The position numbers and the translations under genes are program-made. Below are positions 8,889 through 64,000 of a DNA stretch of 64,000 bases, one piece after another. Each line of letters begins with the position of its first letter. Position 1 is the stretch's first letter. The stretch comes from an uncultured Lachnospiraceae bacterium (GTDB lineage: Bacteria > Bacillota > Clostridia > Christensenellales > UBA1242), in contig CAZQMZ010000005.1 in the NCBI GenBank assembly GCA_964594865.1, positions 8,521 to 72,520 of the forward strand, in the 5' to 3' direction. Below the pieces are notes generated by a model. The model was not told the DNA's origin. It ran no database searches and saw only the letters and a list, made by a program, of their open reading frames with translations.

Positions 8889-8988
8889 GCCTTAATTATA
8901 ACAAAAACATATCAAAAAATCAATAAGAAACAACCACCAGCCTTGACTTTTTTTCAGGATTTATGATAGAATGAAAAGGGGAAAATTT

Positions 8989-10683
8989 ATGGAAGTAAAT
9001 GAAAAACAAAAATATAATTTTTCTGTTTTAGAAAGAATGGCAAGACTTTTGAACATCAAAAATCCATTTTTTAAAAATCTACATTATTCGCTTAAAGAAC
9101 ATCCGCAATATGAAGATAGAATATTTGACTATCCACCTACTCAGTTGCTATTCAATCAAAACGATGAGAGACCTTTTATGTATCTTCATGATGAATTGAG
9201 TCACATATCTAAAGTTAAAGGAAATGGAGGTGACCCATCACAATTAAAAGGTTATGTCGAACTTCATTTTACACATCCACAGCATTATTTGCTTGAATCT
9301 AGTCCTGATGTTTTTGATAGAGATGGATTTGAATTTTTTAAAGCAAACATTGCAAAACTGAAAAAGGAATTTCCTCATGTTGATTTCATCGTTGCAGAAG
9401 ACGGATTCTATACATGGAATAACTATTGCATTTATTACGATGTCGACAATTTCATTGCTTGTTATGATTTTGTTTATGGCTTTGTTGACAAAATTAAAAA
9501 CATGGACATTGACGGAGTTCCATTGTCAAACTTTGAAAAATATTTGGCAGTTGAATCGATTGTTAAACACCTTAAGTATGATCTTGAAAAAGAGACTGAA
9601 TCAACAAATTTATCCAGGTCGCTCACTGGAATTTTATCATCAGGACACATTTGTTGTGTAGGATATTCAATTATGATGAACGAAATTTTGAATAGACTTG
9701 GAATTCCAACATTGAATATACATGCAGGAGATATCACTTCAAAACACTCAAACCATACATTAAGTTGTATAAAATTGGACGATGATAAATATGGCATTCA
9801 TGGAGTCTATTTTTCAGATGTGACTTTTGCACAAAACTCTCCAGTGTTTACCATTTTAAGTTATAAGGAGATTATGCAATATTATAAAGAATTTGAAGAG
9901 ATGGAATTAAAACCTTCTTATAGAAATGTTTCTGCAATTGAAGAATTTGCAACTTTCTTTGAAGAAGACCAAGATTCCAAAGAACATCTTTTGAAGATGA
10001 TAAGAAGGCTTGTATACGAAAACGCAGAAAGCTACATCAACTATTTAATTGAACAAATTCCGTCTTCACCAGTTTTTGAACACTTTTCAAAGGACATGCA
10101 AGTCTTGGAAGAAAACAAAAAATATATTTACGCCATCATGGAAGATTCTTTTGAGATTCTTGAATCGGATTTTTATGATTCCAGATATAACAGACAGCTT
10201 TCGCAACAAAACAATTCCAACGACATGCAGTCCGTCATTGCAACAGCCAGAAGTGATATTGCTGAGCTTCTTGACCAATGTTTGAAGGAAGTTGGAGATC
10301 TTTTAAAGGTTCATTGGACTGCCAATCAAGCATTGTCTTCATCAATCAAAAACAAATTTAGTTACGAGAAAATTCTTGATATATACAAAAGAGAGTTGAA
10401 CAGAGTTTTGCCAAGCGCTGATCTCAAAAGTGATTCTCCTCAACGCCTTGCCACATTCCATTTTCTTATTGACAATTTGGATAAAGAAGATTCAGTCTTT
10501 ACGCCAATCCAAAAACTTGTAAAACACAGAGATCCGCTTTGGGGTAAAACGCTTTATGGACGCATGCAAATTGAAAAAGCTTCTCCTTTGGACAAAAATC
10601 TTGTTCAAGGCGTTGCACGAAATCTTTCCAGAAGATTGGAAACTTCAATTCTTAACATAGACGCAAATTTTGAAAAAAAATAA
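8989..10683 (+). CDS. Transglutaminase-like (papain-fold Cys-His-Asp) domain protein of unknown function
   Basis: GHICCVGYSIMMNEILNRLGIP...NHTLSCI...GVYFSDVTF matches the TGc triad pattern; start set at MEVNE (RBS-like AAAGGGG). Confidence 0.7.
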   Translation: MEVNEKQKYNFSVLERMARLLNIKNPFFKNLHYSLKEHPQYEDRIFDYPPTQLLFNQNDERPFMYLHDELSHISKVKGNGGDPSQLKGYVELHFTHPQHYLLESSPDVFDRDGFEFFKANIAKLKKEFPHVDFIVAEDGFYTWNNYCIYYDVDNFIACYDFVYGFVDKIKNMDIDGVPLSNFEKYLAVESIVKHLKYDLEKETESTNLSRSLTGILSSGHICCVGYSIMMNEILNRLGIPTLNIHAGDITSKHSNHTLSCIKLDDDKYGIHGVYFSDVTFAQNSPVFTILSYKEIMQYYKEFEEMELKPSYRNVSAIEEFATFFEEDQDSKEHLLKMIRRLVYENAESYINYLIEQIPSSPVFEHFSKDMQVLEENKKYIYAIMEDSFEILESDFYDSRYNRQLSQQNNSNDMQSVIATARSDIAELLDQCLKEVGDLLKVHWTANQALSSSIKNKFSYEKILDIYKRELNRVLPSADLKSDSPQRLATFHFLIDNLDKEDSVFTPIQKLVKHRDPLWGKTLYGRMQIEKASPLDKNLVQGVARNLSRRLETSILNIDANFEKK

Positions 10684-27525: not shown

Positions 27526-28782
27526 TTATTTTTCCAAATTAGTTTTTTCAAATTTGTTTTCAACGATATTTTTGATCCAATCTGCACGAGTGTTGATGTA
27601 TGTCTTAAACATTGTTGCGTCTTCTTTTGTCAAAAGAGGTTTTCCGTCAACCGTCATTTCGGTGTAACTGTCAACAATTTTATTGATTTTTTTTGATCTA
27701 ATGACTTTGTTTAACCCCTTCAAAAATTCGTTGGCGTCATCTGGAAAATATGTGACGATATATTCAAGATTTTTGTCGCTAACTATGCTTGAATATCTCT
27801 TTGCAAGTTCTTCCACCGGGATTTTGCTCTGTTCTTCTTTTTTACGTAAATAATCTTTATCAAACTTCAAAATCACTTCCAATTCTTTGACAGGCGGGAT
27901 ATAATCCAATTTTGTCCTTATCAAAGAGTTGAAACTTTCACCATAATCAAAGTTTGGAGCATAGTTCAAATATTTCTTCTCACAATTCACAACAATTCCA
28001 CTGTTTATGTCTGTAAAGTCACAATCACCCAAAAATTCTCTCAAAAGAAACGATCGAACAATCCGGCTTTTCACATTCTTCATATTTCCATTTGGTGAGA
28101 AATGAAAATCTTGAGCACACTTGTTTGCAAAGAACTCCACACTTCTTATCCAATTTTTCACCAACAAAGTCTCTCCACTCACATACTCTTCTTCTTTCAT
28201 TCGATTTATGTTCTCTTCAAAAGAAATAAGGTTTTCGCCGGTGTAATTTCTGTATATTTCAACCCATTCAAACTTTCCATCAATTTTTATTCTTTTTTCT
28301 TCTTTGACAGGCACTTCAATTTCTTCCGCTCTCAAAAAATCGATTGAAACAACTCCCACAGGTTTTAAATTTTCTACACTTCCTGAAATCTTAAAGTTGT
28401 CGATGATTTGAGGATATTTTTTCGCGTCAAACTTCACCAAATAATTGAAAGAAGTTGGCATTCCAAGAACCATTGCAATTCTCATAGCCATGTTTTCTGC
28501 GACTGCTGAATATTTTGTATATGTTGGCTTGAAGGTTGCCGAAATTGTTTCTGGCAAATTCTTTTTATCTACTCCAACAAATTTTCCTGCCTTATTTTTT
28601 TTGTAAATAAATTCATCATAACATGTCCAAACGCAAGACTTTTCTCCTCTTCGAACAGACTTTTCAATCGCGTCAAAAGAAAGATTTTTTGTTGAAACTT
28701 GTCCCCAGACATTTTGACTTTTTCCGCCAGACATTTCCCAGCCTTCAACATCCAAATTTATTTCCAATTCTTGAATTTCCAT
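27526..28782 (-). CDS. Orphan HipA/CtkA-like atypical kinase
   Basis: GEKSCVW, TFKP (Lys), AVAENMAMRIAMVLG (alphaC Glu), GVVSIDF, LGDCDFTDINSG (catalytic D..N), APNFDYGES. Confidence 0.7.
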   Translation of the reverse strand: MEIQELEINLDVEGWEMSGGKSQNVWGQVSTKNLSFDAIEKSVRRGEKSCVWTCYDEFIYKKNKAGKFVGVDKKNLPETISATFKPTYTKYSAVAENMAMRIAMVLGMPTSFNYLVKFDAKKYPQIIDNFKISGSVENLKPVGVVSIDFLRAEEIEVPVKEEKRIKIDGKFEWVEIYRNYTGENLISFEENINRMKEEEYVSGETLLVKNWIRSVEFFANKCAQDFHFSPNGNMKNVKSRIVRSFLLREFLGDCDFTDINSGIVVNCEKKYLNYAPNFDYGESFNSLIRTKLDYIPPVKELEVILKFDKDYLRKKEEQSKIPVEELAKRYSSIVSDKNLEYIVTYFPDDANEFLKGLNKVIRSKKINKIVDSYTEMTVDGKPLLTKEDATMFKTYINTRADWIKNIVENKFEKTNLEK

Positions 28783-45779: not shown

Positions 45780-46292
45780 ATGGAAAAACAAGAAAAAAAA
45801 GAAATTTCAGTAGCAAGAAAATTTAACAATTTAATTGCGCCAATTCAAGACTCCAATAACGGATCTTTAAGGATGTTTGCTGCGGAGATAAAAACTTTTG
45901 GATACACTTCTCATGAGAAAAAGGGAAATCATGATATCTATTACAACATCATAAAAAAGTACGACGAAAATTATCAGCCAGAGCGATTGTTTCAAGCACT
46001 CTCTTTTTCTAAAGAAGGAAACCGATTTATTATTTCTTTGGATAAATATAACATCGGTTTTGGAGGGCAAAAAACATTAAGATCAAAACAAGTGTTGACA
46101 GCAGTGAAAGAAAAGGAAGGGTATTATTGTTCATATGACATTTCAACATACAGAAAAAATGTTGGAACGGCAAAAATAGTGACCAAGACAGAGCGCACTC
46201 TCACTTTTCCAATCGACAAAGACAAAAAAGTTGGAGAAGTAAACCTTCGCTTAACAAAATTTGAAACTGACAAAAATGGAAGAGTGTTATAA
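45780..46292 (+). CDS. Hypothetical basic protein, solitary transcription unit
   Basis: Own TG-TATAAT promoter, AAGGAG RBS, bidirectional terminator 46291-46320. Confidence 0.7.
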   Translation: MEKQEKKEISVARKFNNLIAPIQDSNNGSLRMFAAEIKTFGYTSHEKKGNHDIYYNIIKKYDENYQPERLFQALSFSKEGNRFIISLDKYNIGFGGQKTLRSKQVLTAVKEKEGYYCSYDISTYRKNVGTAKIVTKTERTLTFPIDKDKKVGEVNLRLTKFETDKNGRVL

Positions 46293-48646: not shown

Positions 48647-49082
48647 GTTTTTATTATAAATGATAGAGAAGAAAAAGTCAACCCAAAAGATATTTAAAGT
48701 TGAACAATCTTTATTTTTTGTAAATTTGACAAAAACAACTTTAATATTCAAAAAAAATAAGAATAAATGCTTAAAAAATAAAAAACAACAAAAAAAATAA
48801 TAGAAAAATAATAAAAAATAATAAAAAATAATAAAAAATGATAAAAAAGTGGTAAAAAAATATTTTTTGATATTTTTTAATTTTTTTCTTCACATATTTT
48901 ATCTTTTGATATTATGGAATTTTCGAGATTTTTGCGATATTTTTTATTTAATATTTTTTTAAAAAAAATAAAAAAACAAAAAAGCTGTAAATTTTGTCAA
49001 TTTGCTTGATAAAAAAAGATTAAAAATGTTACAATATTTTTGTTAAATTATTTATAATAAATATAAAGAGTTGAGGTGTTTG

Positions 49083-52000
49083 ATGAAAAGAAGAAGACAA
49101 GTGCTTAAACTTTGGGTGGCAGTCTTGTTGACATTTGTTGGCATTTTGGCAATTGCCGGTGGCACTGTGTTGGCTCTCTATTTCATGGGCAAACTTTCGG
49201 ACGAGGTGGTTGAGCCGGGAAGCAACTCGCTCAGTTTCACCGAATTGGATGAGAACGAAATGGGATACCTTGACTTTTCAATCGATGACACTTATTATTA
49301 CAACGTTGCCGGCGACTTTGAGATGACAATCAATTGTTCCACAGAAGGTGTGACGGTGACAAATGTGACTCTCAGTCTTGCGAACTCTATAAACGACTCA
49401 ACTCTTCCAGCTGGATACATAACAGACGGCATCATCACGATTCCACAACAAGTGACACTCAACGAGTCTTTCACTGTGACGGTCAACCGACTTGAAGATT
49501 ACACAGTTGTTGGTGGGGTTTCAATAATCACGGCTGTGTCTGATGGATACCTTGCAAACAGACTTACGGCAATCATCTCTGTCGACGTGCCTGCAACAAA
49601 CATTGTGGCATATGTCAGTGGTTCTTCAAACACAGAAGGAACGCAAAATGTTGTGATTGGAACAGATTTCTATCTTGAAACAGAATTCACTCCAACGGCA
49701 AGCAAATATTTGTTCTCTGACACAACAACCGAAAAGACAATTTTTTATGTTGTTCCAAACAATTTGGAAATCGACTATGAAACAGGAAAATTCACCGCAA
49801 ACACAAGTGGAACATACACAATTCAGGTGTATGCTTTTTCCAATTCTTATTATCAAAAAGTTTTTCTGGACGCGAACGGCAATTTGGACGCCGAAGAACT
49901 CAACAATGCTGCAATCACATATTTCAACTCGAATCCAGAAGTTTATGTTTCCACCACTGTCACCATTGAAGTGGGCGATGTGGAAGTGACAGATTTGCGC
50001 GTATCGACAAATTCTTTTGATGTGACTGCTGACACAAAATATGTTCTCACAGCCAACTCAACAAACGGAAATGGTTCGCTTGGTTTGAGTGTGCTTGTTG
50101 GAGTTGACAATTTCTCTTCTTTGTATGGAAGAGCGGCAATCAAAGTGACAAGTGACGACATCACCATTGTTGGCGGAAAAGTCATCAAAGTGACTGTGGA
50201 CGAAACAGGAAGTGTGCTTGAAATCACACAAGAAAACTATGACAGCACAAAAAGTTATGTTTCAACTTCAACAGAGATCTATTACATCCAACCAAACACT
50301 TCACCAAGGGAATATGCTGACTATTATTGGCAGATAACTTCCAGCGAAGAGTGCTCTGTGACAACAAGTGTCAACTATTTCTATCAAGATTCTTTTGGTC
50401 AATGGCAGATGTTTCTAGGTTTTGAAAACGAAAAAACGATCACTTTCAATGTGACAGTAAGCACAAGTGAAATAAGTCCTTCTTGGCTTGACTCAGACAT
50501 TATTTTGGAAATTGATTACACTCAAGAACAAGAGACAATCAAGGCGGATGTTGACTTGTCGACATATTTGGCTGAAGTGAGCTCTTCAAACATATACACA
50601 AGAGTGGTCTATTTCCTTTTGGATGACAGCACTTCGGACACCGGTTCCCTTGACAACAGCATCACAGAAATCTTCAACGTCAAAGCGGGAGTGACATACG
50701 GTGGTCTTTCAATTGGAAACACATACAACACATCGGGCAGTTACACTCTTTATGAAATTGAAGGCACAGTTTTGACAGCACTGAAAGCATATTCTTCAGG
50801 TTCGGTCAAAGTTGTGGCGGTGATTGTCAAGACGGATGCCGACGGCAATATTGTGTATGACGAAGACGGCAAGTATATCATAATCAACATGTCTCGTGCA
50901 AAAGTTGTGACAGTGAACAGTTTGCTTTCCATATATAATATGTCAGCAACCTTCACTCTCACAGAAGAAGAAGAATACAGAGTAGAATCAAATACGGGGA
51001 TAACATATTATCTTCCTGCGTTTAATCTCAACGAAGACGGCTCACAAAAAACAATGATCTCTTTCACTTTGGAATTGACTGTCAACACTTCCACTGATGT
51101 TGAAAACTTGATCACGGCATATAGGGACGGAAACTTGACAGTGGATTGCTATTATGACGGAGCGGTTGTTGAATACATCACTTTGGAATCTTTGACACAT
51201 CAAAGCACTGAAGGGAATGTGGCAACTTTCACAGGAGAACTGAAAATTGACGAAACTTATTGTTTGAACAATCGTTCAACTTTGCAACATGGCCTTGAAA
51301 TATATTTCCGACTTACTTACGACAACGGAACAACAGAAAGAACTTCTTTGGTGACCAACGCGAACAATGCAAATGTTTATACAATTGTTTTGTATTCTCC
51401 TGTTCCAACTGCTTTGACAGGGGCTTATGAAGAGACTGAAGAATATTTGAATTCCGTAGTTTCTGCAACCGTCACCACCAGTGGTGTGTCAATCACTTGG
51501 GGCAATAATAACATTTCTTCCATCGACGCTCTCAACCTTCTCTTGACATTCACAATGACTGACCAATATGGTTTTACAATCGATCCAAATGACGGGCTGT
51601 ATGACATTCAATTTTCTGAAAACAGTTCATCAACCAATGTTTTGGGCTTCAACTCTTCCAACAATGCAATCATCAGTTTTTCTGCTGGAACAGAAGTTTC
51701 AACACAGTTGATTGTCAGCATTGTTGACCAAAAAACAAACAGCACAGTCACGGGTGACAATTTGACAAAAACAATCAATTTTGAAGTTGACAGTGAAGGC
51801 GTTTCTTTGATTCGAATAACTCCATCAGACGAAATTCTTTCATCGGGCGGGTATGGTTTTACCGACGCTTTAAGCACATCCGCTGTGACCATTTCAAGAT
51901 ATGTCAGAAGTGGAGACACTGAAACTCTTGCAAACATACTTCAAGTTTACACCGGCACAACGAGTGGAGGTTCTCTTGTCGAAAGTCTTATGTTCCAGCT

Positions 52001-55000
52001 GAACTTGTCGCGATATTCCAGCACAAATCAAGCCCAACTTTTGAAAATGGTGACATTCTATGACTCCAACGGCGGTGTAATCACCACCTTTAATGACAAC
52101 ACTGCGATTTCTTATATGACTTTCAACGGCGTCTTCAAAGAAGCAACAAATCTATATTTCACTGTCACAAGCGCATCAAATTCAAGCCTGTTCTCCATTG
52201 AGTTGACATACACTTGCATGCCGTTGTTAACCATGACAGACAGTTTCTCGAATTATTCAGAAGCATATGCGAACTATTTGGTTAGTTCTGAAAATGCTCT
52301 TGTGGCAAGTGTGTTTGCGGATGAGTCCTATCTCCTTTCAACATATCTCCCGGTTTCATACACTTCAACCGTAACACAAACAAGCGGACTTTGGAGTTGG
52401 GTGAGTTCGGGAAATATCAGCATAACCAGCAGCTCTGACGACACAAGCAATTCGATTTTCAATTCCGAAACAAACATTTTGACACTTTCAATTTCTGGCA
52501 CTAATCTCTATCTCAACATTGATGCGGTTTATCAGTTCACGACCGCAAGCTTTACGCTTTATTTTGGTGTGAGATCAAGTTATGCGTTGAGCATAACTGT
52601 CACTCTATACATTAATCCAAACATCATCATTGAAGAAAAAGTTTCTTCTTTGAGTTCAAGTGCTTTTGTGAACTTGCAGAATTTTGGAAGTGTGACCGAC
52701 AACTTCAATTTCTATAAAGCGACATCCTATATTGCCGGAACTTTGACACCAATCAGCGATTTCTATTCTGGCACAAATTTGTCGTCAAGTTTGACTTTCA
52801 CCAACACAAGCAATGATATATATTTGAGCATAAGCAACGGAGCATATTCTCTTGCAACAAACGGCAACCTGGAATTGACTTTGACACAGCAATTAGAGCA
52901 AACTTTCCAAATTATATATAATGACACCACAATCGACGCCATTCGCGTGAAGGCGGTCTATGATGATAACGGACAAGTCACAGATCAGCAATTTATTTTG
53001 TGCACTGCATCAGAGCACGCCGAAATTTCCGTTCTGATTGGATATGGCGAAAATGAACAAAGTGTGATCGAAGCCATTTTCGCAGACGGAGAAGACCTTC
53101 AAATTGTCACATACAACGGAGAAAAATATCTTCTCTTGACGAATGGTCAAACATACACCTTGATCAATGGTTTTACAATCTATTCACGCAGTGGAGATTT
53201 GTATGATGCAAGTGGCGGCGGAATACTCACCAGCACAGGCAGTTTCATAAGTTTCGACAACAGTGTCACAATCAGCAATTCAGATGAAACAATCAAAATC
53301 ACAATCCCAATTATTGTCAGCATGCTTGGCGATAAAATTTTCGAATATGGCGAAGGATTCAACACTTTCACAAATGAAGACGGCGAAGTTGACTTCTCGG
53401 TGCTTTTGGGAAATCAAACATCTTTGACAGACAATGGAGTTTATGCCACAATTTCTGCGGGCACAACAACCACAATTCTTCACAATTTGAGTAAAAATGC
53501 CGACACTTCCGGAATTGGAATTTATTATCTAAATGACAACATGGGCGTTTCTTGGTCATTCAGTGCTTCCATTGTCAGCGCAACCGGCGTTTTGAACGAC
53601 GCAACAGTTTCACTTCTCAACATGGTGAGTCTTGATTCAAGTTTGAATGATGACGGAGAGATTGAAATCACACTCAATCACCTTTCAAACAACTATACCG
53701 ACGTCTATGTTGTTGTGATGTTCACCTTCACGCGAAACATTTCTTCGGACTCTTTGTCGATCTATCTGCGTTTGAAAGTTGAAACAAGTTTTGAGGCAGG
53801 TTCTGTGACATATCCATATGCTGATTCTGCTGAATATCTCGACGAAAAATCGGTGTATTATAGTGACGGCACATACACAATCGATCTTGAAGAAACACTT
53901 GACAGTTCAAACAGCAAATTCACAGAAGAAACCAAACGATTTGGCGATGTTTCAATTGAAGATGAGAAAATCACAAGTGTATATCAAATCACATCAATAA
54001 TTGTTGGCGGCACATCCGTTTCAACTGGAAATTATTCGACATATTTCGACTATACAATAGCCGACACAATCTTGACAATCACACCAAAAACATTCAGCAC
54101 AATTCAAATTGTTGTGCAGAACTCTTTCTATTATGACGGCGCGCTTATGATTGGCAGTGAACTTTCATACACATTCATCTTCAATCAAAGTGTTTCATAC
54201 AACCACTCAATCACGCAAGTCACAACAATAACGGAAAACGAAGAAAGCAAGAAAGTCGAAACACCTTTAAGTTCGACAAATGACATCTATGACATAACTT
54301 TGCAAGCGGGAAGCAATGAAACTGAATATGTCATTCAAATCATCTTGAACAGCGCAACAGTTGACTCTTTTGGTGTGAATATGACGGGAGATTATGAAGA
54401 TGCTCTTCAACAAAACAACGGAACGTATTACACTCTCACAGACAACGAAGTTTCAGGTGCAAACGCTGGCACAAAAACACTGACAATCACACCAAAAACT
54501 AGTGTGGACAAAGATTATGTTGTCACAATCATCATATACACCGATCGCGTTGTTTGCGTTCTCAACATCACTGTGACGGGAATTTATTCATACGAACTGA
54601 ATAACATTGAACTTTCGGGCGGAAACACTTACAATTTGATTAACGAAAACAACGGTATTTTCAAAACATTGGAGGGAGAAAGTTTTACAATTGCTTTGAG
54701 CGATCAATATGATGAAGAAACAAAAGCTTCTCTTGAAAAACTTTACATTTATAATTCAACCACAATTGAATTTGCACACTTGACAGAAGACACAACTTTC
54801 ATTTTTGATGTTACAATTAATGAAGGCAGGGACGATAAATACACCTTCACAATTGAACTTGTGGTCAAAGAAAGTTTAGATGACAGACAGAGAACTTATC
54901 AAGATAATAGCACAAGTTATTATTCTGGAGCGACAATAAATGTCGACATGAGCACTTTGTTGACAGCAATCGATCTTTCAAGTGATGACGTATATTCCAA

Positions 55001-58000
55001 CGGAACAGGCAACGGAACAGGATTTGCTTTTGACACAGGTGGATCGACAAGCGCATCATTCACGGCACAATCGGTTGGCTTGTCGACAGTTTGCTATACA
55101 ACTCTGACAATTTATTATGTGTTTAACGGAGAAGCGCTTTATCAAATCACTTTAAACTATTATTACACTGCTCTTCCAAATGTTTCTCTCTCAGTCAACT
55201 ATCCACAACCGGACGGAGAAAACAATGCAACATACACAATTGTCACCACATCCACAACAATGGATGCAGAATATTTGCAAGCAACAACAGAAGGTTCTGT
55301 CACAGTGAGCGACTTCTTCACCAGCACGGCGGACCTTGCAAAGGGAACTCGTGTTGCGGTTGGAACTCTTGTAGAAAACATAACGCCAACTTGGATCGTA
55401 AGCATAGAAACAATTTCCAATTTGACAGTCAACAATCAGACAAGTGGAACAATTGAAAACCCTAACAGCGATCTTACGTTCACCTTGACAAATGGCGCAA
55501 CAACAGGATATGTCACATTCACGATCACAGTCAACCTTGTTTCAGTGAGCTACACCGTTGTTGTGACCAGTGCGTCGATTTATTCCTTTGCAAACTACAT
55601 TCCAGAGATCGACAACACAGGAGAGGTGATCTATGCAGAAGATATGGCAGAATTGTTGGATGACAACGACGATGACAGTTCTGTTCTCAACATCTTCCAA
55701 CAAGAAAGAATTTTGAACTACACTCTCCGCACTTCCGGAACATATTATTTGAAATATGTTAAGTCTGAGACTGATTTCAAAATCATCACCATTTCGGGCA
55801 CTGCTGGAGAAAATGTCAACAAAGATTTGGGCTTCTCACTTTCGGGATACACCTATGACGGAACATATCGATATTCGAGTGGCAGTGATGTTTCGACAAA
55901 ATTGGATGACTCGGAAATTTATTCTTCTGCACCAATTCTTGTGGCGCGCGTTGTGGTGAGATATGCCGACGGCTCAATCATCGTTCTGTCAAAACACAGT
56001 GGCTTGTCGATTACGTATGATTCCGAAAGTCAAGACAATTATTCTCTTGTCACAACCACAGACACTTTGCAAACAGTTAATTTAAGTTTTGGAACATCGA
56101 CGGACACAATATTGACGGGCACATATTCCTATACTCTCAAACTTGACTTTGCTGTTTCTGGCAATGCTGACAGCGCGACAAACTATACCACATACAACAT
56201 CAACGCCGGCACTTCAATTTCGCTTTTAAGTGACACACAATCAACGTTTGGCATTCAATCGTCAAAAACGGGAGAATATTATTCCTCAAGCGACATTTCA
56301 AACAACAATGCCACGTTGACTTTGCAAGTGTATGGTTTCGCAACTTTGCCAATTGACACAGCTGCCACAATCAACAACATCCAAGACAGCGCATCACTTG
56401 ATAAAGTGGCGGGCGCAATTCACAACTATTTAGTTTCGACAACATACAGTAAGACTGACAATTCTGGCAACACGCAGTATTATAAATATTACACCGGTTT
56501 GACTCCAAGAGCGGGCGGAACAATCAACAGTATAAGCGGTGGAATAAATGAATATGACTATATTGTCATTGAAAACAACGGAAACGATTGGACGATAAGG
56601 GCTCAGGGCGCAAACAATGACGGAAACTATGTGATGATATTGTTGACATACAGTGTTGAATTGGGAAATGAAACAATCACATCGTCGCACAACCTTCTGT
56701 TCTTTGTTCAACCAAATTCCACGGTTTCATATTCGTCTTCGCCAACAAATTCAGCAGCAAATGTTTCTGGAGATTCAACAAAGACCAATGGTGAACAAAC
56801 CTATGTTTCCAACGAACTCACTCCTTATGAAATCAATGAAAGCGATTTGGGAAATGACGGCACTTTGACAATTGATCTCTATGATGTGATTTTTGCTTAT
56901 ATGCGTGGCAGTTCTTCCAACCAAATCAGCACCTTTGACAGTTGGACAATTTCATTGAACGAAACAATTGACGGCGCAACTTACAACAATGAGTCGTATA
57001 TCAATTCAAGCAGCACCAATGTCTTGACACTGGGCAGCAGCAGTTGGGAAAAATCAAATGATAGTGATTATTATTCAGCTTCTATAACTTCCAGCACCGA
57101 TTCATTGGAACTGACATTAAGTTCTTCCAACTTGGGCGAAAAGTTGTTCTATGTTGAGTTTGAGGATCCATTTGGATTTATCGGACGGTTCTATTTCAAA
57201 GTTGTTTCTTCAGACAATCCAGAGATTTACAGTTTGACATCCACAACTTTGACAGAAGGAAGTTATCTCGCTTTCGCATCTCAATACACCACCATGACAA
57301 CAGCAAACATAAGTGGTTATGACACATACTATTCGTTCAATTATTCATACAGCGGCAGCAACAACGACGAGATAGAAATAGCCCTAGACACGAATACAGT
57401 TTCCATCAATTATAGAATTCAATTGACATTGCAAAATGCAATGACTGTTAGTTCAGTCGAAATTCCAGCCAATACAGTTTTGGAAAGAACTGGCACCGCC
57501 GCAAACATCAGCACGGCAACGATTGAAATTAATGGAGAAAATACCGAGTGGACATATTATGACAGCAATAATGCGGCTCAAACGGTGACATTGACTGACG
57601 CTCAATTGATGAGCGCTGGAGCGACAGTGCAATTCTCAATGACTATCTATGACAACATCACTCAACAAGGATCAACATCATTGAGTTCAACTGTGCTATA
57701 CACATTGACATATGCGGATGAAGAGCAGGCAATTGCATATGAAATAGGCAATAGGGTTTCAAATCCTGGAATAACCAACAATATTGAGGATGGCATCAAT
57801 GACAATCCTGAACTCACAACTGTCATTTTCAGCGGATTGACAGCATATGCGTTTGACACCAATTCGGCAATTGATAAAACTTCTTTGGAAGAACAAAGTC
57901 TTTATTCAAACATTGGCAATTTGAAAGTAACAAAAGTGACATTCACATATGACAATGGCGAGATTTCTGACACACAAGAAGTTAAACTAAGCGGATTAAG

Positions 58001-59351
58001 TTTCTTGACAGCAGAAGGTTTGTCCTTCATTGATGAATATGGCGCCGAAACCGAAGGTTCCGGACTTGCAAATTCTGGAAATACACTTGTTGTTCCAACA
58101 TTCAAAGGAATTGACTTTGGCACAGGCAATCTTTTAACCGGAGTGATTATGACCGTGACAATTCAAGACACAAGCACCGGAGAAACTTGCGAAGTGACAA
58201 GAACGGTCAACATTCAACGTGCTGTTTCAACATCCGACATCTTCACATCGACGGCAGTTTTGGACGGAGAGTCGGTTTCTGGAAATGTTTCAGGCAGTCT
58301 CTCTGGGTCACTTCTCAATGACACACTTGAAATCGACCTTGAAGCAGGCGAAAGCATGACTTTGGTTGTGCATAACGAACAATTGGAATATGTTAACGGC
58401 AACTATTATTTCTCAACTTCGGACGAAGCAATTTCCACAGGAAAGACATATTACACAATTTCAGACGGAGTTGCAACGGCTGTCACAACTCCACAACAAA
58501 GTTTAATGTCGTCATATTATGAATTGTTCACACCAAACTATGTGACAATTTCCAACCAAGGAAGTTATGCAGTCACCGAATATGTTGGAATTTCGGCAAG
58601 CATGGCAAGCGGTGTGTTGACAGAGAACTTGGAAGAAGATTCAGAATTCTATGTTTATGTATACTCATACACCACCGCTTCCAATGACAAGGGTGTTTCT
58701 GACGCTGTGATTTACTATAATGGCACACAATTGACAGTTTCCAGCGATGGGGAAGTGACACTTACTTCCAACGATGAAGAAGTGACACTTACAATTGCAG
58801 AACTCGACAATGATGCACTCACACTCAACATTGAGAACACATCGGCTCTTACAAACAATCAAATGACCAAGAGACTATACTTCTTGTATACATCCAGCAC
58901 ATCCGGCGAAACATATCAAATTCAACAAGAATTCACAGTGTATCCATACTACACAAGCGCAGAAGCGGAAAATGCAGCTGCACTCTCTGGCGCGATTTAT
59001 GTGGATGTGTCCGGAAAGCAACCTGATGATGACGGTTATTACACTCTTGAGTTATCAGATTGGGCAAGCGAAATCGCTCTAACAAAAGGCAATGAAAGCA
59101 CATCAAGTGGTGACTATTTGACAAGCGGAAATGTAGAGAAGTTCTATTTTGAAATTGCAAGTGGAAATGCAACAATTGATGAAGACACAGGTGTGATTAA
59201 AACCAACATGACAGAAATCCAATATATCACCGTCAATGTTTACATCAAAGTTTCCGGAATAGCCGACGATTGGGATTCTGACAACGGAACAATTCTTATC
59301 GGCACATTTGAAATTCGTTTGGATTATGATGGATCATCTTCTTCAGCATAA
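49083..59351 (+). CDS. Giant (~3,420 aa) Ser/Thr/Asn/Tyr-rich beta-strand surface protein with N-terminal membrane anchor
   Basis: Single uninterrupted ORF; MKRRRQVLKLWVAVLLTFVGILAIAGGTVLALYF; GAGGTG RBS; Ig-like alternating beta patterns; no LPxTG/SLH seen. Confidence 0.9.
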   Translation: MKRRRQVLKLWVAVLLTFVGILAIAGGTVLALYFMGKLSDEVVEPGSNSLSFTELDENEMGYLDFSIDDTYYYNVAGDFEMTINCSTEGVTVTNVTLSLANSINDSTLPAGYITDGIITIPQQVTLNESFTVTVNRLEDYTVVGGVSIITAVSDGYLANRLTAIISVDVPATNIVAYVSGSSNTEGTQNVVIGTDFYLETEFTPTASKYLFSDTTTEKTIFYVVPNNLEIDYETGKFTANTSGTYTIQVYAFSNSYYQKVFLDANGNLDAEELNNAAITYFNSNPEVYVSTTVTIEVGDVEVTDLRVSTNSFDVTADTKYVLTANSTNGNGSLGLSVLVGVDNFSSLYGRAAIKVTSDDITIVGGKVIKVTVDETGSVLEITQENYDSTKSYVSTSTEIYYIQPNTSPREYADYYWQITSSEECSVTTSVNYFYQDSFGQWQMFLGFENEKTITFNVTVSTSEISPSWLDSDIILEIDYTQEQETIKADVDLSTYLAEVSSSNIYTRVVYFLLDDSTSDTGSLDNSITEIFNVKAGVTYGGLSIGNTYNTSGSYTLYEIEGTVLTALKAYSSGSVKVVAVIVKTDADGNIVYDEDGKYIIINMSRAKVVTVNSLLSIYNMSATFTLTEEEEYRVESNTGITYYLPAFNLNEDGSQKTMISFTLELTVNTSTDVENLITAYRDGNLTVDCYYDGAVVEYITLESLTHQSTEGNVATFTGELKIDETYCLNNRSTLQHGLEIYFRLTYDNGTTERTSLVTNANNANVYTIVLYSPVPTALTGAYEETEEYLNSVVSATVTTSGVSITWGNNNISSIDALNLLLTFTMTDQYGFTIDPNDGLYDIQFSENSSSTNVLGFNSSNNAIISFSAGTEVSTQLIVSIVDQKTNSTVTGDNLTKTINFEVDSEGVSLIRITPSDEILSSGGYGFTDALSTSAVTISRYVRSGDTETLANILQVYTGTTSGGSLVESLMFQLNLSRYSSTNQAQLLKMVTFYDSNGGVITTFNDNTAISYMTFNGVFKEATNLYFTVTSASNSSLFSIELTYTCMPLLTMTDSFSNYSEAYANYLVSSENALVASVFADESYLLSTYLPVSYTSTVTQTSGLWSWVSSGNISITSSSDDTSNSIFNSETNILTLSISGTNLYLNIDAVYQFTTASFTLYFGVRSSYALSITVTLYINPNIIIEEKVSSLSSSAFVNLQNFGSVTDNFNFYKATSYIAGTLTPISDFYSGTNLSSSLTFTNTSNDIYLSISNGAYSLATNGNLELTLTQQLEQTFQIIYNDTTIDAIRVKAVYDDNGQVTDQQFILCTASEHAEISVLIGYGENEQSVIEAIFADGEDLQIVTYNGEKYLLLTNGQTYTLINGFTIYSRSGDLYDASGGGILTSTGSFISFDNSVTISNSDETIKITIPIIVSMLGDKIFEYGEGFNTFTNEDGEVDFSVLLGNQTSLTDNGVYATISAGTTTTILHNLSKNADTSGIGIYYLNDNMGVSWSFSASIVSATGVLNDATVSLLNMVSLDSSLNDDGEIEITLNHLSNNYTDVYVVVMFTFTRNISSDSLSIYLRLKVETSFEAGSVTYPYADSAEYLDEKSVYYSDGTYTIDLEETLDSSNSKFTEETKRFGDVSIEDEKITSVYQITSIIVGGTSVSTGNYSTYFDYTIADTILTITPKTFSTIQIVVQNSFYYDGALMIGSELSYTFIFNQSVSYNHSITQVTTITENEESKKVETPLSSTNDIYDITLQAGSNETEYVIQIILNSATVDSFGVNMTGDYEDALQQNNGTYYTLTDNEVSGANAGTKTLTITPKTSVDKDYVVTIIIYTDRVVCVLNITVTGIYSYELNNIELSGGNTYNLINENNGIFKTLEGESFTIALSDQYDEETKASLEKLYIYNSTTIEFAHLTEDTTFIFDVTINEGRDDKYTFTIELVVKESLDDRQRTYQDNSTSYYSGATINVDMSTLLTAIDLSSDDVYSNGTGNGTGFAFDTGGSTSASFTAQSVGLSTVCYTTLTIYYVFNGEALYQITLNYYYTALPNVSLSVNYPQPDGENNATYTIVTTSTTMDAEYLQATTEGSVTVSDFFTSTADLAKGTRVAVGTLVENITPTWIVSIETISNLTVNNQTSGTIENPNSDLTFTLTNGATTGYVTFTITVNLVSVSYTVVVTSASIYSFANYIPEIDNTGEVIYAEDMAELLDDNDDDSSVLNIFQQERILNYTLRTSGTYYLKYVKSETDFKIITISGTAGENVNKDLGFSLSGYTYDGTYRYSSGSDVSTKLDDSEIYSSAPILVARVVVRYADGSIIVLSKHSGLSITYDSESQDNYSLVTTTDTLQTVNLSFGTSTDTILTGTYSYTLKLDFAVSGNADSATNYTTYNINAGTSISLLSDTQSTFGIQSSKTGEYYSSSDISNNNATLTLQVYGFATLPIDTAATINNIQDSASLDKVAGAIHNYLVSTTYSKTDNSGNTQYYKYYTGLTPRAGGTINSISGGINEYDYIVIENNGNDWTIRAQGANNDGNYVMILLTYSVELGNETITSSHNLLFFVQPNSTVSYSSSPTNSAANVSGDSTKTNGEQTYVSNELTPYEINESDLGNDGTLTIDLYDVIFAYMRGSSSNQISTFDSWTISLNETIDGATYNNESYINSSSTNVLTLGSSSWEKSNDSDYYSASITSSTDSLELTLSSSNLGEKLFYVEFEDPFGFIGRFYFKVVSSDNPEIYSLTSTTLTEGSYLAFASQYTTMTTANISGYDTYYSFNYSYSGSNNDEIEIALDTNTVSINYRIQLTLQNAMTVSSVEIPANTVLERTGTAANISTATIEINGENTEWTYYDSNNAAQTVTLTDAQLMSAGATVQFSMTIYDNITQQGSTSLSSTVLYTLTYADEEQAIAYEIGNRVSNPGITNNIEDGINDNPELTTVIFSGLTAYAFDTNSAIDKTSLEEQSLYSNIGNLKVTKVTFTYDNGEISDTQEVKLSGLSFLTAEGLSFIDEYGAETEGSGLANSGNTLVVPTFKGIDFGTGNLLTGVIMTVTIQDTSTGETCEVTRTVNIQRAVSTSDIFTSTAVLDGESVSGNVSGSLSGSLLNDTLEIDLEAGESMTLVVHNEQLEYVNGNYYFSTSDEAISTGKTYYTISDGVATAVTTPQQSLMSSYYELFTPNYVTISNQGSYAVTEYVGISASMASGVLTENLEEDSEFYVYVYSYTTASNDKGVSDAVIYYNGTQLTVSSDGEVTLTSNDEEVTLTIAELDNDALTLNIENTSALTNNQMTKRLYFLYTSSTSGETYQIQQEFTVYPYYTSAEAENAAALSGAIYVDVSGKQPDDDGYYTLELSDWASEIALTKGNESTSSGDYLTSGNVEKFYFEIASGNATIDEDTGVIKTNMTEIQYITVNVYIKVSGIADDWDSDNGTILIGTFEIRLDYDGSSSSA

Positions 59352-60957: not shown

Positions 60958-61395
60958 ATGGTTTTGAAAAAATATTTGAAAATCTTGTGGCTTAAAGTTG
61001 TCAGAACAGTTCTGGTTGTTTTGGGCACATGTATTTTTGTTTTTCCGGGAGTTTTTTGTCTTGTCAGTTTTGCTTTTGCAGAGTTGATTGCGCGTGAAAG
61101 TCCTATGTTGGACACAAAAGGAATTTTTATGCTTTCTCACGAACTTTCAAAAGGACATCGTGTGGAAATCTTTTTTAGATATTTTCTTACCTTTTTGGTT
61201 ATCGGACTGATTGTCGGTCTTGTTTTTTCTGTCGTCACAATTTTCAATCATTTTTGCACGATTTCCAAAACAGTTGAAATCATCGTTATTCTCACAGCAA
61301 TTTTGTTGACTTTTTTGCTGATCTTGCCACACTTAAAAACAAAAATAAAGACTTGTTTTGCGCTTGCCAAGAGAGAAAAAATTATTAGAAATTGA
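60958..61395 (+). CDS. Small multi-pass membrane protein (DUF975-like C-terminal pattern)
   Basis: CIFVFPGVFC...S.ELSKGHRVEIF; three hydrophobic segments. Confidence 0.55.
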   Translation: MVLKKYLKILWLKVVRTVLVVLGTCIFVFPGVFCLVSFAFAELIARESPMLDTKGIFMLSHELSKGHRVEIFFRYFLTFLVIGLIVGLVFSVVTIFNHFCTISKTVEIIVILTAILLTFLLILPHLKTKIKTCFALAKREKIIRN

Positions 61396-61484
61396 CAAAA
61401 ACGATTTACAAAGATTTTATGTTCAAAAAAATTTGTATTTTTTTCGTTTTTTTGATAAAATCATAACGAGAGGTTTAAAAAGTT

Positions 61485-62054
61485 ATGGACTATCGTGATT
61501 TCACAAAACGAGCAACTGCATATGACGGATTTGTAAAATTTCGCAAAGATGTTTTGGACAACACTGAAAAAGGCGGTTTTACAGAAAGTTTCACCGACCT
61601 TTGTGCAAATGCGTTAGCTGGGAATTGTATTGCACAAGATTGCGTTGCATACTTTTTCAAACGCGGTGTGCCAGATCCAAAATCGGAAACGAGATATCTT
61701 CTTCCGCCAAATTATGATTATTATATTTCTTGGCAAATTTTGGCAGGGGCAAACGGAAATGAATTTGCTTTGGAAAAGTTGGAATTTTTTCTAAATCCTG
61801 CACTTGAAACAATCATCGATGATGAAGAAATTTTGACACGGGCTATGCAGAAAAAGAACATCACAAAAGACAACGCTTTGATGGTGATTTCAAACCTGAT
61901 TTGCGAAGGAATTGTCGATCAACTTCATATTGATCCAAAGAAACTTATAAAAATCGATAACAGAGAAGTGCCATATTCCGCGCAAAGAAATCGTATATAT
62001 CTTGACGCCATGGAAGACTGTTTGATTGATGTTGTCGACTTTTTGATAAGTTAG
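61485..62054 (+). CDS. Hypothetical protein with one Sel1-like repeat
   Basis: ALAGNCIAQDCVAYFFKRG...NYDYYISWQILAGANGNEFA resembles the SLR consensus; GAGAGG RBS. Confidence 0.55.
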   Translation: MDYRDFTKRATAYDGFVKFRKDVLDNTEKGGFTESFTDLCANALAGNCIAQDCVAYFFKRGVPDPKSETRYLLPPNYDYYISWQILAGANGNEFALEKLEFFLNPALETIIDDEEILTRAMQKKNITKDNALMVISNLICEGIVDQLHIDPKKLIKIDNREVPYSAQRNRIYLDAMEDCLIDVVDFLIS

Positions 62055-62072
62055 TTTGACAATTTTTGAAGA

Positions 62073-62552
62073 TTGATCATAAAAAAGCATATGGATACCA
62101 TTTATGACGACGAACTTATGCCAGATAATTTTGAACAAATGGCAAAGGCATATTCAAAATCGCTTAAAAACAAGGGTTTTGTTTTTGTCCGCTTGGAAGA
62201 GGAAGAGTTTCACTTACTTTTGTCGGAAGTGTTTGTGATCATCTCCAAAATGCAGGCATGTTTAAACCGCTTGAAGGCTCTTCTCGATGCCAGGGTTTTG
62301 CAAGAGAAACTTTGTCACGCAAAAAGTCAATTGGAAGAAAAATTTGGTTCGAAACACTCATACAACTTTGTTTGTATTGAAGATGAAAATAAGGCTTTTT
62401 TGAGTTTGGTGGCGCTTGAAAATTTGCTTATTATCAAGCTGATGTTGCTTTCGGTCAAAAGTGGAGAGCTTGAACTTTGCAACAGCATAACAACAGCCAT
62501 CACCGGAGTTTTTGCAGAAAGTTTTCCGTGCGAGGGGTTTAAGGTGAATTAA
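62073..62552 (+). CDS. Hypothetical helical protein (start may be ATG 62091)
   Basis: ORF track; same strand as neighbour; ends at bidirectional terminator 62569-62601. Confidence 0.6.
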   Translation: MIIKKHMDTIYDDELMPDNFEQMAKAYSKSLKNKGFVFVRLEEEEFHLLLSEVFVIISKMQACLNRLKALLDARVLQEKLCHAKSQLEEKFGSKHSYNFVCIEDENKAFLSLVALENLLIIKLMLLSVKSGELELCNSITTAITGVFAESFPCEGFKVN

Positions 62553-62620
62553 AAAAGATTTTTTAAAAAAAATAGTGGCAACGTCTACCACTATTTTTAT
62601 TTCAAAAGCTATCTTCATTT

Positions 62621-64000
62621 TTAGAATCTATCAAACGGGTTGGAGGACTTCAAAACTTTCTTATTTCTCATTTTGATGTCATAATAAACTTTTTGAGTGT
62701 CCAAACTCTTCATAATTCCAACAGATTGCTCGGCTTTTTTAGTGTAGAAAAATGGTGTTTCATAGACAGCTGTTTGTTTAATTTTCATTGGGTTGAATCT
62801 GAAAAGTTTGACAATCATGGTGTTCAGTGGCAACTGTCCAAGTTCATAAGGGGTGATAAGCGGGCGAGTGGAGCGTTGAACGCTTGTGTTTGTGCTTGTG
62901 CTCTTGTCGTCAGTATTCTTTTGAGATTTTGATGTGCCAGTGCTTGTTTCTTCATGCACCAATTGCACTTCACCGCACATTTTTGAGAAGTCATCTCTTG
63001 TTTGCTGGTCGTCCGCACCGACAAAGATTTGCGCGTTACAGTTTGTTTTGACGGTTTTAAGTCCATCGGCGCCATATTTTGTCTCAATCTGTGCATAAGA
63101 TTGCACTGCCATTTCAAACAAGATGTTTCTTCCACGCGCAACAGTGATCATGCTATCAAATTTTGGAATTGGTGGCAAGTTTCCAAACTCTTCCAAGATG
63201 AAGTAAACATGACGTGGCAACATCCCACCTGGATATGAATTTGCTTTGTCGACAAGACGTTTGTATAGTTGAGACAAGCACAAAATTGCAAGATTGTGAC
63301 GCTCTTCGCGGTCATCTGGAATGATGAGATAGAAAGCAGTTGGAACAGATGTGAAATCATCAAAATTCAGGTCGCTTTGAGATGTCAAATAAGCAATGCC
63401 GATGTCGTTCATGAAAGAGATTTTTCCGTTGAGCACACCCATATATGATTTTGTTGTGCCCGGAGCGTTGTTGATGACAGATGACGTCAAGTTTGGAACG
63501 TTGGAAGTGGCTTCGTCTCGACCTTGCAACAAATATTTTCTCACAGTCTCGAATGGAGCATCGGCATCTGGATCGCGGAAAGTGGCAATTTTGTATAGAT
63601 TATAGAAATTGAACTTTTCTCTCGTCATGCCAAGTTCTGGGTTCAAACTGTCTTCAAGCATAGCAAGTGAACAACCATAGAGGAAATCTTGTGCACCTTC
63701 TTCCCAAGTTGGATCACTTGCTTTTGGAGATTTTGGAGCAATAGTGTTGCAAATTTCTCGAAGTTCGTTATATGCCATGTCGCAATAGACTTGTTCAGCG
63801 CTCTTGACGGCAACACGAAGAGATTCTTCATTTGGATATGCAATTCCTTCAAAACCAAACCACTCTTTGCCATATTTTTCGCCAGGGATTTCTTTATATC
63901 CTGCATCTTTTGGATGAGTGCCGTTGACACATTTTTTAATGTGGTTTCTGCAGCTCTTTCCTTTGTGATATAAATCATATGCGTGTTCCATTGGGTTCCA
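62621..64000 (-). CDS. virD4: VirD4/TraG type IV coupling protein, 3' part; 5' end outside the window
   Basis: Frame open to window edge (WNPMEH), DPTWEEGAQ, FILEEFGNLP.IP.FDSMITVARGRNI, VQSYAQIETKYG, TVKTNC, RPLITPYEL. Confidence 0.88.
   Translation of the reverse strand, partial: WNPMEHAYDLYHKGKSCRNHIKKCVNGTHPKDAGYKEIPGEKYGKEWFGFEGIAYPNEESLRVAVKSAEQVYCDMAYNELREICNTIAPKSPKASDPTWEEGAQDFLYGCSLAMLEDSLNPELGMTREKFNFYNLYKIATFRDPDADAPFETVRKYLLQGRDEATSNVPNLTSSVINNAPGTTKSYMGVLNGKISFMNDIGIAYLTSQSDLNFDDFTSVPTAFYLIIPDDREERHNLAILCLSQLYKRLVDKANSYPGGMLPRHVYFILEEFGNLPPIPKFDSMITVARGRNILFEMAVQSYAQIETKYGADGLKTVKTNCNAQIFVGADDQQTRDDFSKMCGEVQLVHEETSTGTSKSQKNTDDKSTSTNTSVQRSTRPLITPYELGQLPLNTMIVKLFRFNPMKIKQTAVYETPFFYTKKAEQSVGIMKSLDTQKVYYDIKMRNKKVLKSSNPFDRF

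Follow-up and report, generated by a model that had tools for sequence, protein, structure and literature searches.

The virD4 gene and its conservation

The 64,000-nucleotide stretch of DNA analysed here (the window, G000:C5:8521-72520) ends within a virD4 gene, which encodes the type IV coupling protein (T4CP) of a type IV secretion system (T4SS). It comes from a genome of 944,770 bp in 25 contigs, rated 100% complete, and was studied within a sample of 71 genomes of the gut genus Candidatus Caccovivens (Christensenellales, family UBA1242), including 54 of high quality. Contigs of the present genome are labelled C, sampled genomes G (G000 being the present one) and sampled loci, from relatives or from this genome, L. 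An earlier interpretation made from the letters of the window (the sequence-only reading) had assigned the open reading frame (ORF) at this edge to VirD4/TraG, and had described its surroundings as housekeeping genes of host-like sequence style. The assignment was confirmed. The gene is placed as follows.

62621..64000, minus strand, running on to window-equivalent position 64651 (C5:71141-73171): virD4, type IV coupling protein, assigned by Pfam, NCBIfam and motifs

The window contains the C-terminal 459 codons, and the gene extends 651 nt past its edge to encode a product of 676 aa. This protein matched Pfam families PF02534 (T4SS-DNA_transf, 7e-38), PF12696 (TraG-D_C, 3.5e-32) and PF10412 (TrwB_AAD_bind, 9e-19), and scored 267.7 bits on NCBIfam NF045973 (VirD4-like conjugal transfer protein, CD1115 family, equivalog; cut-off 250). 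As judged from its sequence, its N-terminus comprises two hydrophobic helices (residues 13-34 and 50-69), and both the Walker A (GTTASGKT) and the Walker B (ILEEFG) motifs are intact. A cardiolipin synthase, a small transmembrane (TM) protein and two uncharacterised proteins are encoded nearby, and the G+C content of positions 62001-64000 (0.394) is within the range of the rest of the window.

All 71 genomes of the genus, among them all 54 of high quality, contained a full-length ortholog of virD4, with identities of 41-90%. The ratio of nonsynonymous to synonymous substitution rates (dN/dS), determined against the nearest relative, was 0.06 (dS about 1), and the Walker A and B motifs were retained in all sampled orthologs of the genus clades (L028-L095). 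The gene is under strong purifying selection. Upstream of virD4 there are 574 nt of non-coding DNA and then a divergent tRNA-Arg(TCG), where contig C5 stops; this divergent junction is kept in about 38 loci. In the close clade (VirD4 at least 57% identical), the gene order is virD4, two genes called here p159 and p189, a gene for a small TM protein, the cardiolipin synthase gene (cls) and a gene for a giant surface protein. As the sequence-only reading had proposed to check, virD4 is core and syntenic across the lineage, as shown by its presence in all genomes, the tRNA-Arg junction and the p159/p189 block.

None of the signs that would place the virD4 locus in an integrative and conjugative element (ICE), namely a cognate relaxase, an integrase with att repeats, or variable presence, was found. 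Profiles for three relaxase classes (PF03432 for MOBQ/P, PF18555 for MobL and PF02486 for MOBT), run on the whole present genome, gave no match, MOBV, MOBF, MOBH and MOBC relaxases not having been searched for. No tyrosine recombinase is encoded on contig C5 (the two of this genome are on C3 and C8), serine and DDE recombinases not having been searched for. These results bear out the earlier remark that no relaxase or integrase lies on the window's side of virD4, and the outcome that the sequence-only reading had named as fatal to its proposal, a virD4 located in a strain-variable ICE with relaxase and integrase, was not encountered, the gene being core in 71 of 71 genomes. We conclude that virD4 is not ICE cargo but a core chromosomal gene.

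Repeats are nevertheless found by the tRNA-Arg, between virD4 and the intact tRNA and just past the window (C5:73304-73582), but they copy the 5' half of the tRNA rather than its 3' end.

L002:13305-13368: partial copy of the 5' part of tRNA-Arg(TCG)
L002:13543-13583: second partial copy of the same part

About 40 nt of upstream flank belong to one copy, and the two have a variant D-arm in common. Extra copies of the 5' half upstream of the tRNA also occur in L039, L041-L043, L046, L047, L060 and L065. They could be a decayed tandem duplication or an unusual recombination footprint on the 5' side.

The far side of the tRNA-Arg varies among relatives, and an integrase is found at the 3' side of the tRNA in L041, L042, L046, L060 and L082. 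In the present genome, end overlaps revealed no contig that follows the tRNA. In L058, a 90% identical relative, the DNA past the tRNA contains homologs of folD, DHFR (dihydrofolate reductase), glyA and thyA, which in the present genome are on contig C7, and it is from this nearest relative only that we infer what may follow here. A complete ICE occupies the 3' side of the tRNA-Arg in genome G002, beside the core virD4.

G002:C1, about 59.9-81.8 kb (L118:5870-19965 and L119:1-7830): complete ICE

Its genes are, in order, MobL, VirD4 (722 aa), a 1,481-aa surface protein, pilin, VirB6, VirB4 and others, followed by a primase, a C5 methylase and a tyrosine integrase; past the integrase come the tRNA-Arg and then the core virD4. 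The 1,481-aa protein is immunoglobulin (Ig)-like, and a BspA-type leucine-rich repeat (LRR) protein is also encoded. From the integrases on the 3' side and from this ICE, it follows that the tRNA-Arg is an island hotspot and that the core virD4 is just outside it, on the 5' side. MobL was found in 15 of the 71 genomes, and ICE-type second copies of VirD4 in about 7.

A further VirD4 homolog, 37-41% identical, was observed in metagenome-assembled genomes (MAGs) of other Clostridia (L097, L099-L106). It occupies a conserved housekeeping context, with homologs of our genome's uvrA, a murJ-like gene and C2_93745 on one side and a gene of the metallo-β-lactamase (MBL) fold on the other. Its Walker A motif reads GTTGAAKT or GTTGANKT, the glycine preceding the lysine being gone, and it may be an exapted T4CP with altered ATPase function.

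The other parts of the secretion system

The system proposed by the sequence-only reading turned out to be more complete than could be seen in the window, since a VirB3-VirB4 fusion, a VirB6-like protein and pilins, which are similarly core, are encoded elsewhere in the genome. The parts are spread over four loci, one on C5 (virD4), two on C1 (VirB3-VirB4 and the pilins) and one on C16 (VirB6-like).

C1:88493-91192: VirB3-VirB4 fusion, 899 aa, with a membrane-anchored N-terminus (Pfam P-loop_TraG PF19044, DUF87 PF01935 and AAA_10 PF12846)
C16:6698-8824: VirB6-like polytopic protein, 708 aa (NF045848, MMCAP2_0566/Mbov_0396 ICE transmembrane protein, 101.9 bits, cut-off 90)
C1:24829-25230: first of two tandem VirB2-like pilin genes
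C1:25473-25862: second tandem VirB2-like pilin gene

VirB4, found in 71 of 71 genomes of the genus, also matched the NCBIfam CD1110 family (9e-48); in the present genome its gene is followed by that of a 3,440-aa lipoprotein, an association that is conserved, and then by rpoB/rpoC. The VirB6-like protein (68 of 71 genomes) scored 69.8 on NF045889, for which the cut-off is 70, and had no Pfam match. The pilin (NF045849, Mbov_0395 family, 40.8 bits, cut-off 40) was found in 65 of 71 genomes and in 53 of the 54 high-quality ones. These three parts are of the Mollicutes-ICE type, and the VirB4, VirB6-like and VirB2-like pilin components of a minimal monoderm T4SS are all present.

The VirB6-like and pilin genes often occur as 2-4 tandem paralogs across the genus. 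We observed 3-4 tandem VirB6-like paralogs in several species (examples of multiple copies are G006:C3, G007:C8, G011:C11, G023:C9, G047:C7, G055:C7 and G068:C12) and 2-4 pilin copies, with four in L098. Such copy numbers are reminiscent of variable surface-exposed parts.

Information on the history of the system came from those species of the genus that are more distant (VirD4 identities of 43-50%; L068-L091, L098), where virD4 is flanked by homologs of genes that are on other contigs in our genome. In L091, one strand encodes VirB4, the VirB6-like protein, a 721-aa protein (no NCBIfam family match) and the pilin, and the other encodes VirD4 and a surface protein of 2,785 aa. Similar clusters are found in L098, L084 and L077. 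Because clusters of this type adjoin homologs of C1_87149 and C1_87555, the neighbours of VirB4 in the present genome, the arrangement suggests that the VirB4 locus was the site of an ancestral cluster, from which virD4, virB6-like and the pilins were dispersed later in our clade.

The G002 ICE encodes homologs of all four core parts, with identities of 44% for the pilin, 32% for the VirB6-like protein, 42% for VirB4 and 38% for VirD4. Its VirD4 is extended by about 90 aa at the C-terminus relative to the core protein and differs from it at the N-terminus. Thus, the ICEs in circulation and the core system represent sister forms of the same machine.

Neighbouring genes and surface proteins

Within the window, the following features accompany virD4 in the conserved block.

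62572..62594, no strand: hairpin in the gap that separates p159 from the convergent virD4, read by eye (7-bp stem, 9-nt loop)
62091..62552, plus strand: p159, cytoplasmic helical-bundle protein, 153 aa (synteny, alignment, AlphaFold2 (AF2) model)
61485..62054, plus strand: p189, all-alpha protein, 189 aa, the other conserved neighbour of virD4 within the close clade
60958..61395, plus strand: small, polytopic 145-aa membrane protein, its conservation in this block being weak
49071..59351, plus strand: N-terminally anchored surface protein, 3,426 aa, syntenic with virD4 in the close clade

In 34 of 36 relatives, the p159 gene immediately follows virD4 in the same orientation, while it is inverted relative to virD4 in the present genome, in L029 and in L058. 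In these three, a small local inversion took p159 out of the virD4 transcription unit. The two genes are now separated by 68 nt, and the sequence-only reading had assumed a shared terminator there. A rule-based terminator scan of positions 61300-62750 reported nothing; the scan missed the hairpin because its loop exceeds 8 nt. Preceded by an A-run and followed by a T-run, this 7-bp hairpin is plausibly a bidirectional intrinsic terminator, so that the proposal found support by inspection of the gap and none by the scan.

The p159 family comprises 212 members, all unnamed and limited to MAGs of this lineage. Its alignment has a mean column identity of 62% and its AF2 model consists of five helices (mean confidence score pLDDT 84.6). 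For p189 there are syntenic orthologs adjacent to the virD4 genes in 31 loci, mean column identity over the two proteins is 62-63%, and the p189 AF2 model is compact and all-alpha (pLDDT 94.6). The conserved stretches of both proteins lack a signal peptide and a TM segment. Neither protein matched a Pfam or NCBIfam family above threshold, and a fold search of the two models against the PDB gave no match at E <= 0.001. Among the weak PDB matches of p189, the most indicative was a Sel1 repeat protein (probability 0.33); this and ferritin-like resemblances were rejected as indications of function, as they reflect generic helical-bundle similarity. By their gene linkage only, p159 and p189 appear to be the best candidates for adaptors or cargo of VirD4. 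The 145-aa membrane protein has homologs that are 28-38% identical in 10 loci, and all its Pfam and NCBIfam hits were below threshold. We doubt that it is part of the T4SS.

The 3,426-aa surface protein evolves fast (26-34% identity in most relatives, 53% in the nearest) and has no paralog in its own genome. A different giant surface-protein gene directly follows virD4 in the species with clustered genes and in the G002 ICE, and VirB4 is likewise followed by a giant in our genome. A paralogous relationship between the 3,426-aa protein and the giants found after virD4 in the clustered species was considered and rejected, as no similarity was found by BLASTP at 1e-5. Eleven surface-type proteins of 1,295-6,465 aa are encoded in the present genome, amounting to about 33,500 aa or about 10.6% of its 0.94 Mb. 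Besides others, their genes are placed as follows.

C1:55286-74683: giant surface-type protein gene
C1:91228-101550: giant surface-type protein gene
C4:31765-50061: giant surface-type protein gene
C10:19419-29792: giant surface-type protein gene
C12:20647-28857: giant surface-type protein gene
C13:5521-11112: giant surface-type protein gene
C5:1-5347: giant surface-type protein gene

Since giants take up about 10% of the genome, the proximity of the 3,426-aa protein to virD4 is weak evidence. This protein is a candidate contact or adhesion component, its putative link being synteny at a distance of four genes, while a functional tie between this type of T4SS and large adhesin-like proteins in general is likely.

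On contig C7, we also observed a locus (C7:33501-37852) in which a 1,093-aa Cas9-like gene (N-terminus MKYRLALDIGIASVGW) is accompanied by a short ORF resembling Cas2 and by a repeat array whose translation is a repeated peptide. It is probably a type II CRISPR-Cas locus.

Function, alternative explanations and known systems

Taken together, the data make it probable that virD4 encodes the coupling ATPase of a vertically inherited, relaxase-less, minimal T4SS of Gram-positive type, which would have become fixed in the reduced genomes of Caccovivens. In the mechanism that we propose, a membrane-anchored VirD4 hexamer would dock on the channel formed by VirB3-VirB4 and VirB6 and would use ATP to feed a cytoplasmic substrate outward into a partner cell, the contact with which would be made by the pilin and giant surface proteins. 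To our knowledge, the import-only T4SS relatives ComB and Ced have no T4CP, and the retention of a T4CP here therefore argues for export rather than import. The characterised relaxase-less T4SSs that retain a T4CP are, as far as we know, protein exporters. From this and from the lack of a relaxase, we lean towards a protein substrate. We give this slightly less than an even chance, but favour it over DNA.

A number of observations weigh against this interpretation. VirB4 scored just under the equivalog cut-off of NF045975 (Mbov_0397 VirB4; 579 bits, cut-off 590), and the pilin just below the gathering score of Pfam PF18895 (T4SS_pilin; 25.6, gathering score 26.6). No VirB8-like or VirB1-like part (the latter a cell-wall hydrolase) was recognised, though without a dedicated test, and the relaxase search covered the three classes given above. 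The dispersed genes might no longer work together. None of our computed results discriminates a protein from a DNA substrate. In Patescibacteria, the T4CP is reported to be dispensable and other T4SS genes essential (bioRxiv 10.1101/2025.01.22.634366), and by analogy VirD4 might have a separate, exapted role. Finally, three of the 71 core VirD4 matches contain one in-frame stop (TGA or TAA), the other 68 being intact; these stops may reflect errors of assembly or rare cases of pseudogenisation. The matches concerned are the following.

G060:C19:21704-23716: VirD4 match with a single in-frame stop
G054:C61:13064-15088: VirD4 match with a single in-frame stop
G044:C14:9065-11080: VirD4 match with a single in-frame stop

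The alternative that best survives is that the machine serves relaxase-independent exchange of chromosomal DNA between Caccovivens cells, as does the ICE-encoded T4SS in Mycoplasma chromosomal transfer, which would counter the mutational decay of a tiny genome. Among named families, those nearest to three of the four parts are conjugation proteins of Mollicutes ICEs, the system is of ICE descent, and T4CPs are related to DNA translocases. On the other hand, none of the three relaxase classes was found in the genome, it is unusual for conjugation genes to be retained universally among species whose VirD4 is as little as 41% identical, and the analogous system of Patescibacteria has been argued to have functions other than conjugation. 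We regard DNA exchange as possible, but would not bet on it.

That virD4 is the remnant of an ICE once inserted at the tRNA-Arg, now decaying or exapted for a non-secretion role, is very improbable. The gene does adjoin a tRNA integration hotspot, with integrases on the 3' side in relatives and a full ICE in G002, partial copies of the tRNA 5' half are present in the spacer, and the T4SS genes of our genome are dispersed. However, the islands do not include virD4, which is on the tRNA's 5' side, the remaining three parts are just as much core, and the ancestral cluster appears to have been at the VirB4 locus rather than at the tRNA-Arg. The gene has also kept its ATPase motifs and is intact in all genomes but the three with one stop. 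The remnant explanation is largely refuted by the 71/71 conservation and the dN/dS of 0.06, and we have rejected it.

The sequence-only reading had proposed a domesticated type IV protein-delivery system with scattered effectors, encoded by three solitary genes with a common start (M-E-x-[QN]-E) and charged C-termini.

8989-10683: 564 aa, labelled "TG-like" by the sequence-only reading, with an alternative ATG at 8971
27526-28782, minus strand: labelled "kinase" by the sequence-only reading
45780-46292: 170 aa

The three ORFs exist, with the termini that had been described. They had no Pfam or NCBIfam family, only sub-threshold matches, among them one (E 9e-4) of residues 179-372 of the first to the Mycoplasma MAG6410 transglutaminase-related lipoprotein family. 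They are accessory, unannotated and devoid of a signal peptide, as effectors often are, and the start motif is nominally enriched (4 of 854 ORF calls, 0.49 expected; only 2 more outside the window). This pattern was, however, fitted post hoc to these very genes and is not kept in orthologs. Those of the "kinase" start with MEEVK, MEVQD, MSKIE, MRKLR, MKKLK, MESLL, MAEIP and MAEIK, seven of the eight lacking the motif (the remaining one being MEVQD), and the sole ortholog of the 170-aa protein starts with MAKKD and lacks it too. Known T4CP recognition signals are C-terminal, not N-terminal. As to the C-termini, 46% of the proteome has at least 3 charged residues among the last 7, a net charge of +1 for the last 20 residues corresponds to the median of the proteome, and the tails of the "kinase" orthologs are dissimilar. 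No shared translocation signal of the effector type was found, and we put the resemblance between the three genes down to chance. The genes themselves are orphan or patchy: the first has no homolog besides itself in a database of 5.8 billion proteins, the second is in 9 of 71 genomes and the third in 2 of 71, a distribution unrelated to that of the universal T4SS, and nothing ties them to it. What stands of the proposal is a chromosomal, domesticated T4SS, core, syntenic and outside any ICE; the scattered effectors do not, and an injection of these three proteins by way of their start motif and charged tail is hardly credible.

To return to the vertically inherited T4SS, it may be asked what it does for the cell. 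UBA1242 bacteria, for which sporulation genes are reported, lack most biosynthesis and standard transporters, and from metabolism alone it has been inferred that they depend on partners, as obligate symbionts or as parasites; that account of their lifestyle makes no mention of secretion or conjugation systems (PMC12306168). The universal relaxase-less T4SS is a concrete candidate for the means by which these Clostridia of about 0.9 Mb deal with other cells. We tentatively suggest, as an idea with rather more against it than for it, that the T4SS could be a central, growth-essential organelle of partner exploitation, independent of that of Patescibacteria, in which a p159/p189 adaptor or cargo module would export proteins or relaxase-free DNA by way of variable pilins and giants. 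The system would be a second, probably independent case of monoderm conjugation machines becoming fixed organelles in ultra-small dependent bacteria, a recent idea that stems from Patescibacteria. Moreover, the occurrence of a mobile ICE, a clustered core and a dispersed core in one genus provides a natural series in which to follow domestication and the parts that it can dispense with.

Several known systems resemble this one in part. Legionella Dot/Icm and Bartonella VirB/VirD4 translocate effectors whose genes are scattered, and in Rickettsia the T4SS genes themselves are dispersed. These are likewise T4CP-dependent machines without conjugative function, with genes dispersed in the chromosomes of host-dependent bacteria. 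Unlike Caccovivens, these bacteria are diderm, and their systems have many more parts and experimentally defined C-terminal signals and adaptors, whereas no effector family or signal could be defined here. The G002 ICE has homologs of all four core parts (32-44% identical) and a giant surface protein after virD4, but it differs from the core system by its MobL, primase, methylase and tyrosine integrase at tRNA-Arg and by its presence in a minority of genomes. The CTn2-type ICE of Clostridioides difficile (CD1110 VirB4, CD1115 VirD4) is similar in that our VirD4 is above the CD1115 cut-off and our VirB4 matches the CD1110 family.

The Mollicutes ICE module comprises the pilin-like Mbov_0395, the TM protein Mbov_0396/MMCAP2_0566, the VirB4 Mbov_0397 (CDS17) and the TraG/VirD4 protein CDS5 (PMC6030558). 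It provided the best NCBIfam matches for our pilin, TM protein and VirB4, and shares with the present system a minimal part list and a large surface lipoprotein associated with the module. In contrast, the Caccovivens genes are off mobile elements and at four loci, their VirD4 is of the clostridial CD1115 family, and Caccovivens is probably walled. We know of no canonical relaxase in Mollicutes ICEs.

The closest parallel is that of Patescibacteria, in which a chromosomal, relaxase-less T4SS of the MPF_FATA (mating-pair formation) type has been described, with pilin arrays, a T4CP far from virB4 and no VirB3-VirB4 fusion; T4SS genes are reported to be essential for epibiotic growth in Ca. Southlakia epibionticum (bioRxiv 10.1101/2025.01.22.634366). 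Compared with this description of a co-opted T4SS in the candidate phyla radiation (CPR), the Caccovivens system shows the same set of features, being chromosomal, lineage-wide and relaxase-less, having its pilin genes in arrays and encoding its T4CP at a distance from virB4. Both are found in ultra-small, partner-dependent bacteria, most genomes being without a relaxase, and both have tandem VirB2-like pilins (PF18895-type) and descend from monoderm conjugation systems. They differ in that the Caccovivens host is a reduced genus of Clostridia, VirB3 is fused to VirB4, and p159 and p189 are lineage-specific. Furthermore, the VirD4 of Caccovivens is universal and under strong purifying selection, and its gene is inside the cluster in some species, while the parts match Mollicutes-ICE families, with NCBIfam affinities of VirB4 to Mollicutes and Clostridia. 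Since the host is a reduced member of the Clostridia and not of the CPR, the co-option in Caccovivens was probably independent of that in Patescibacteria.

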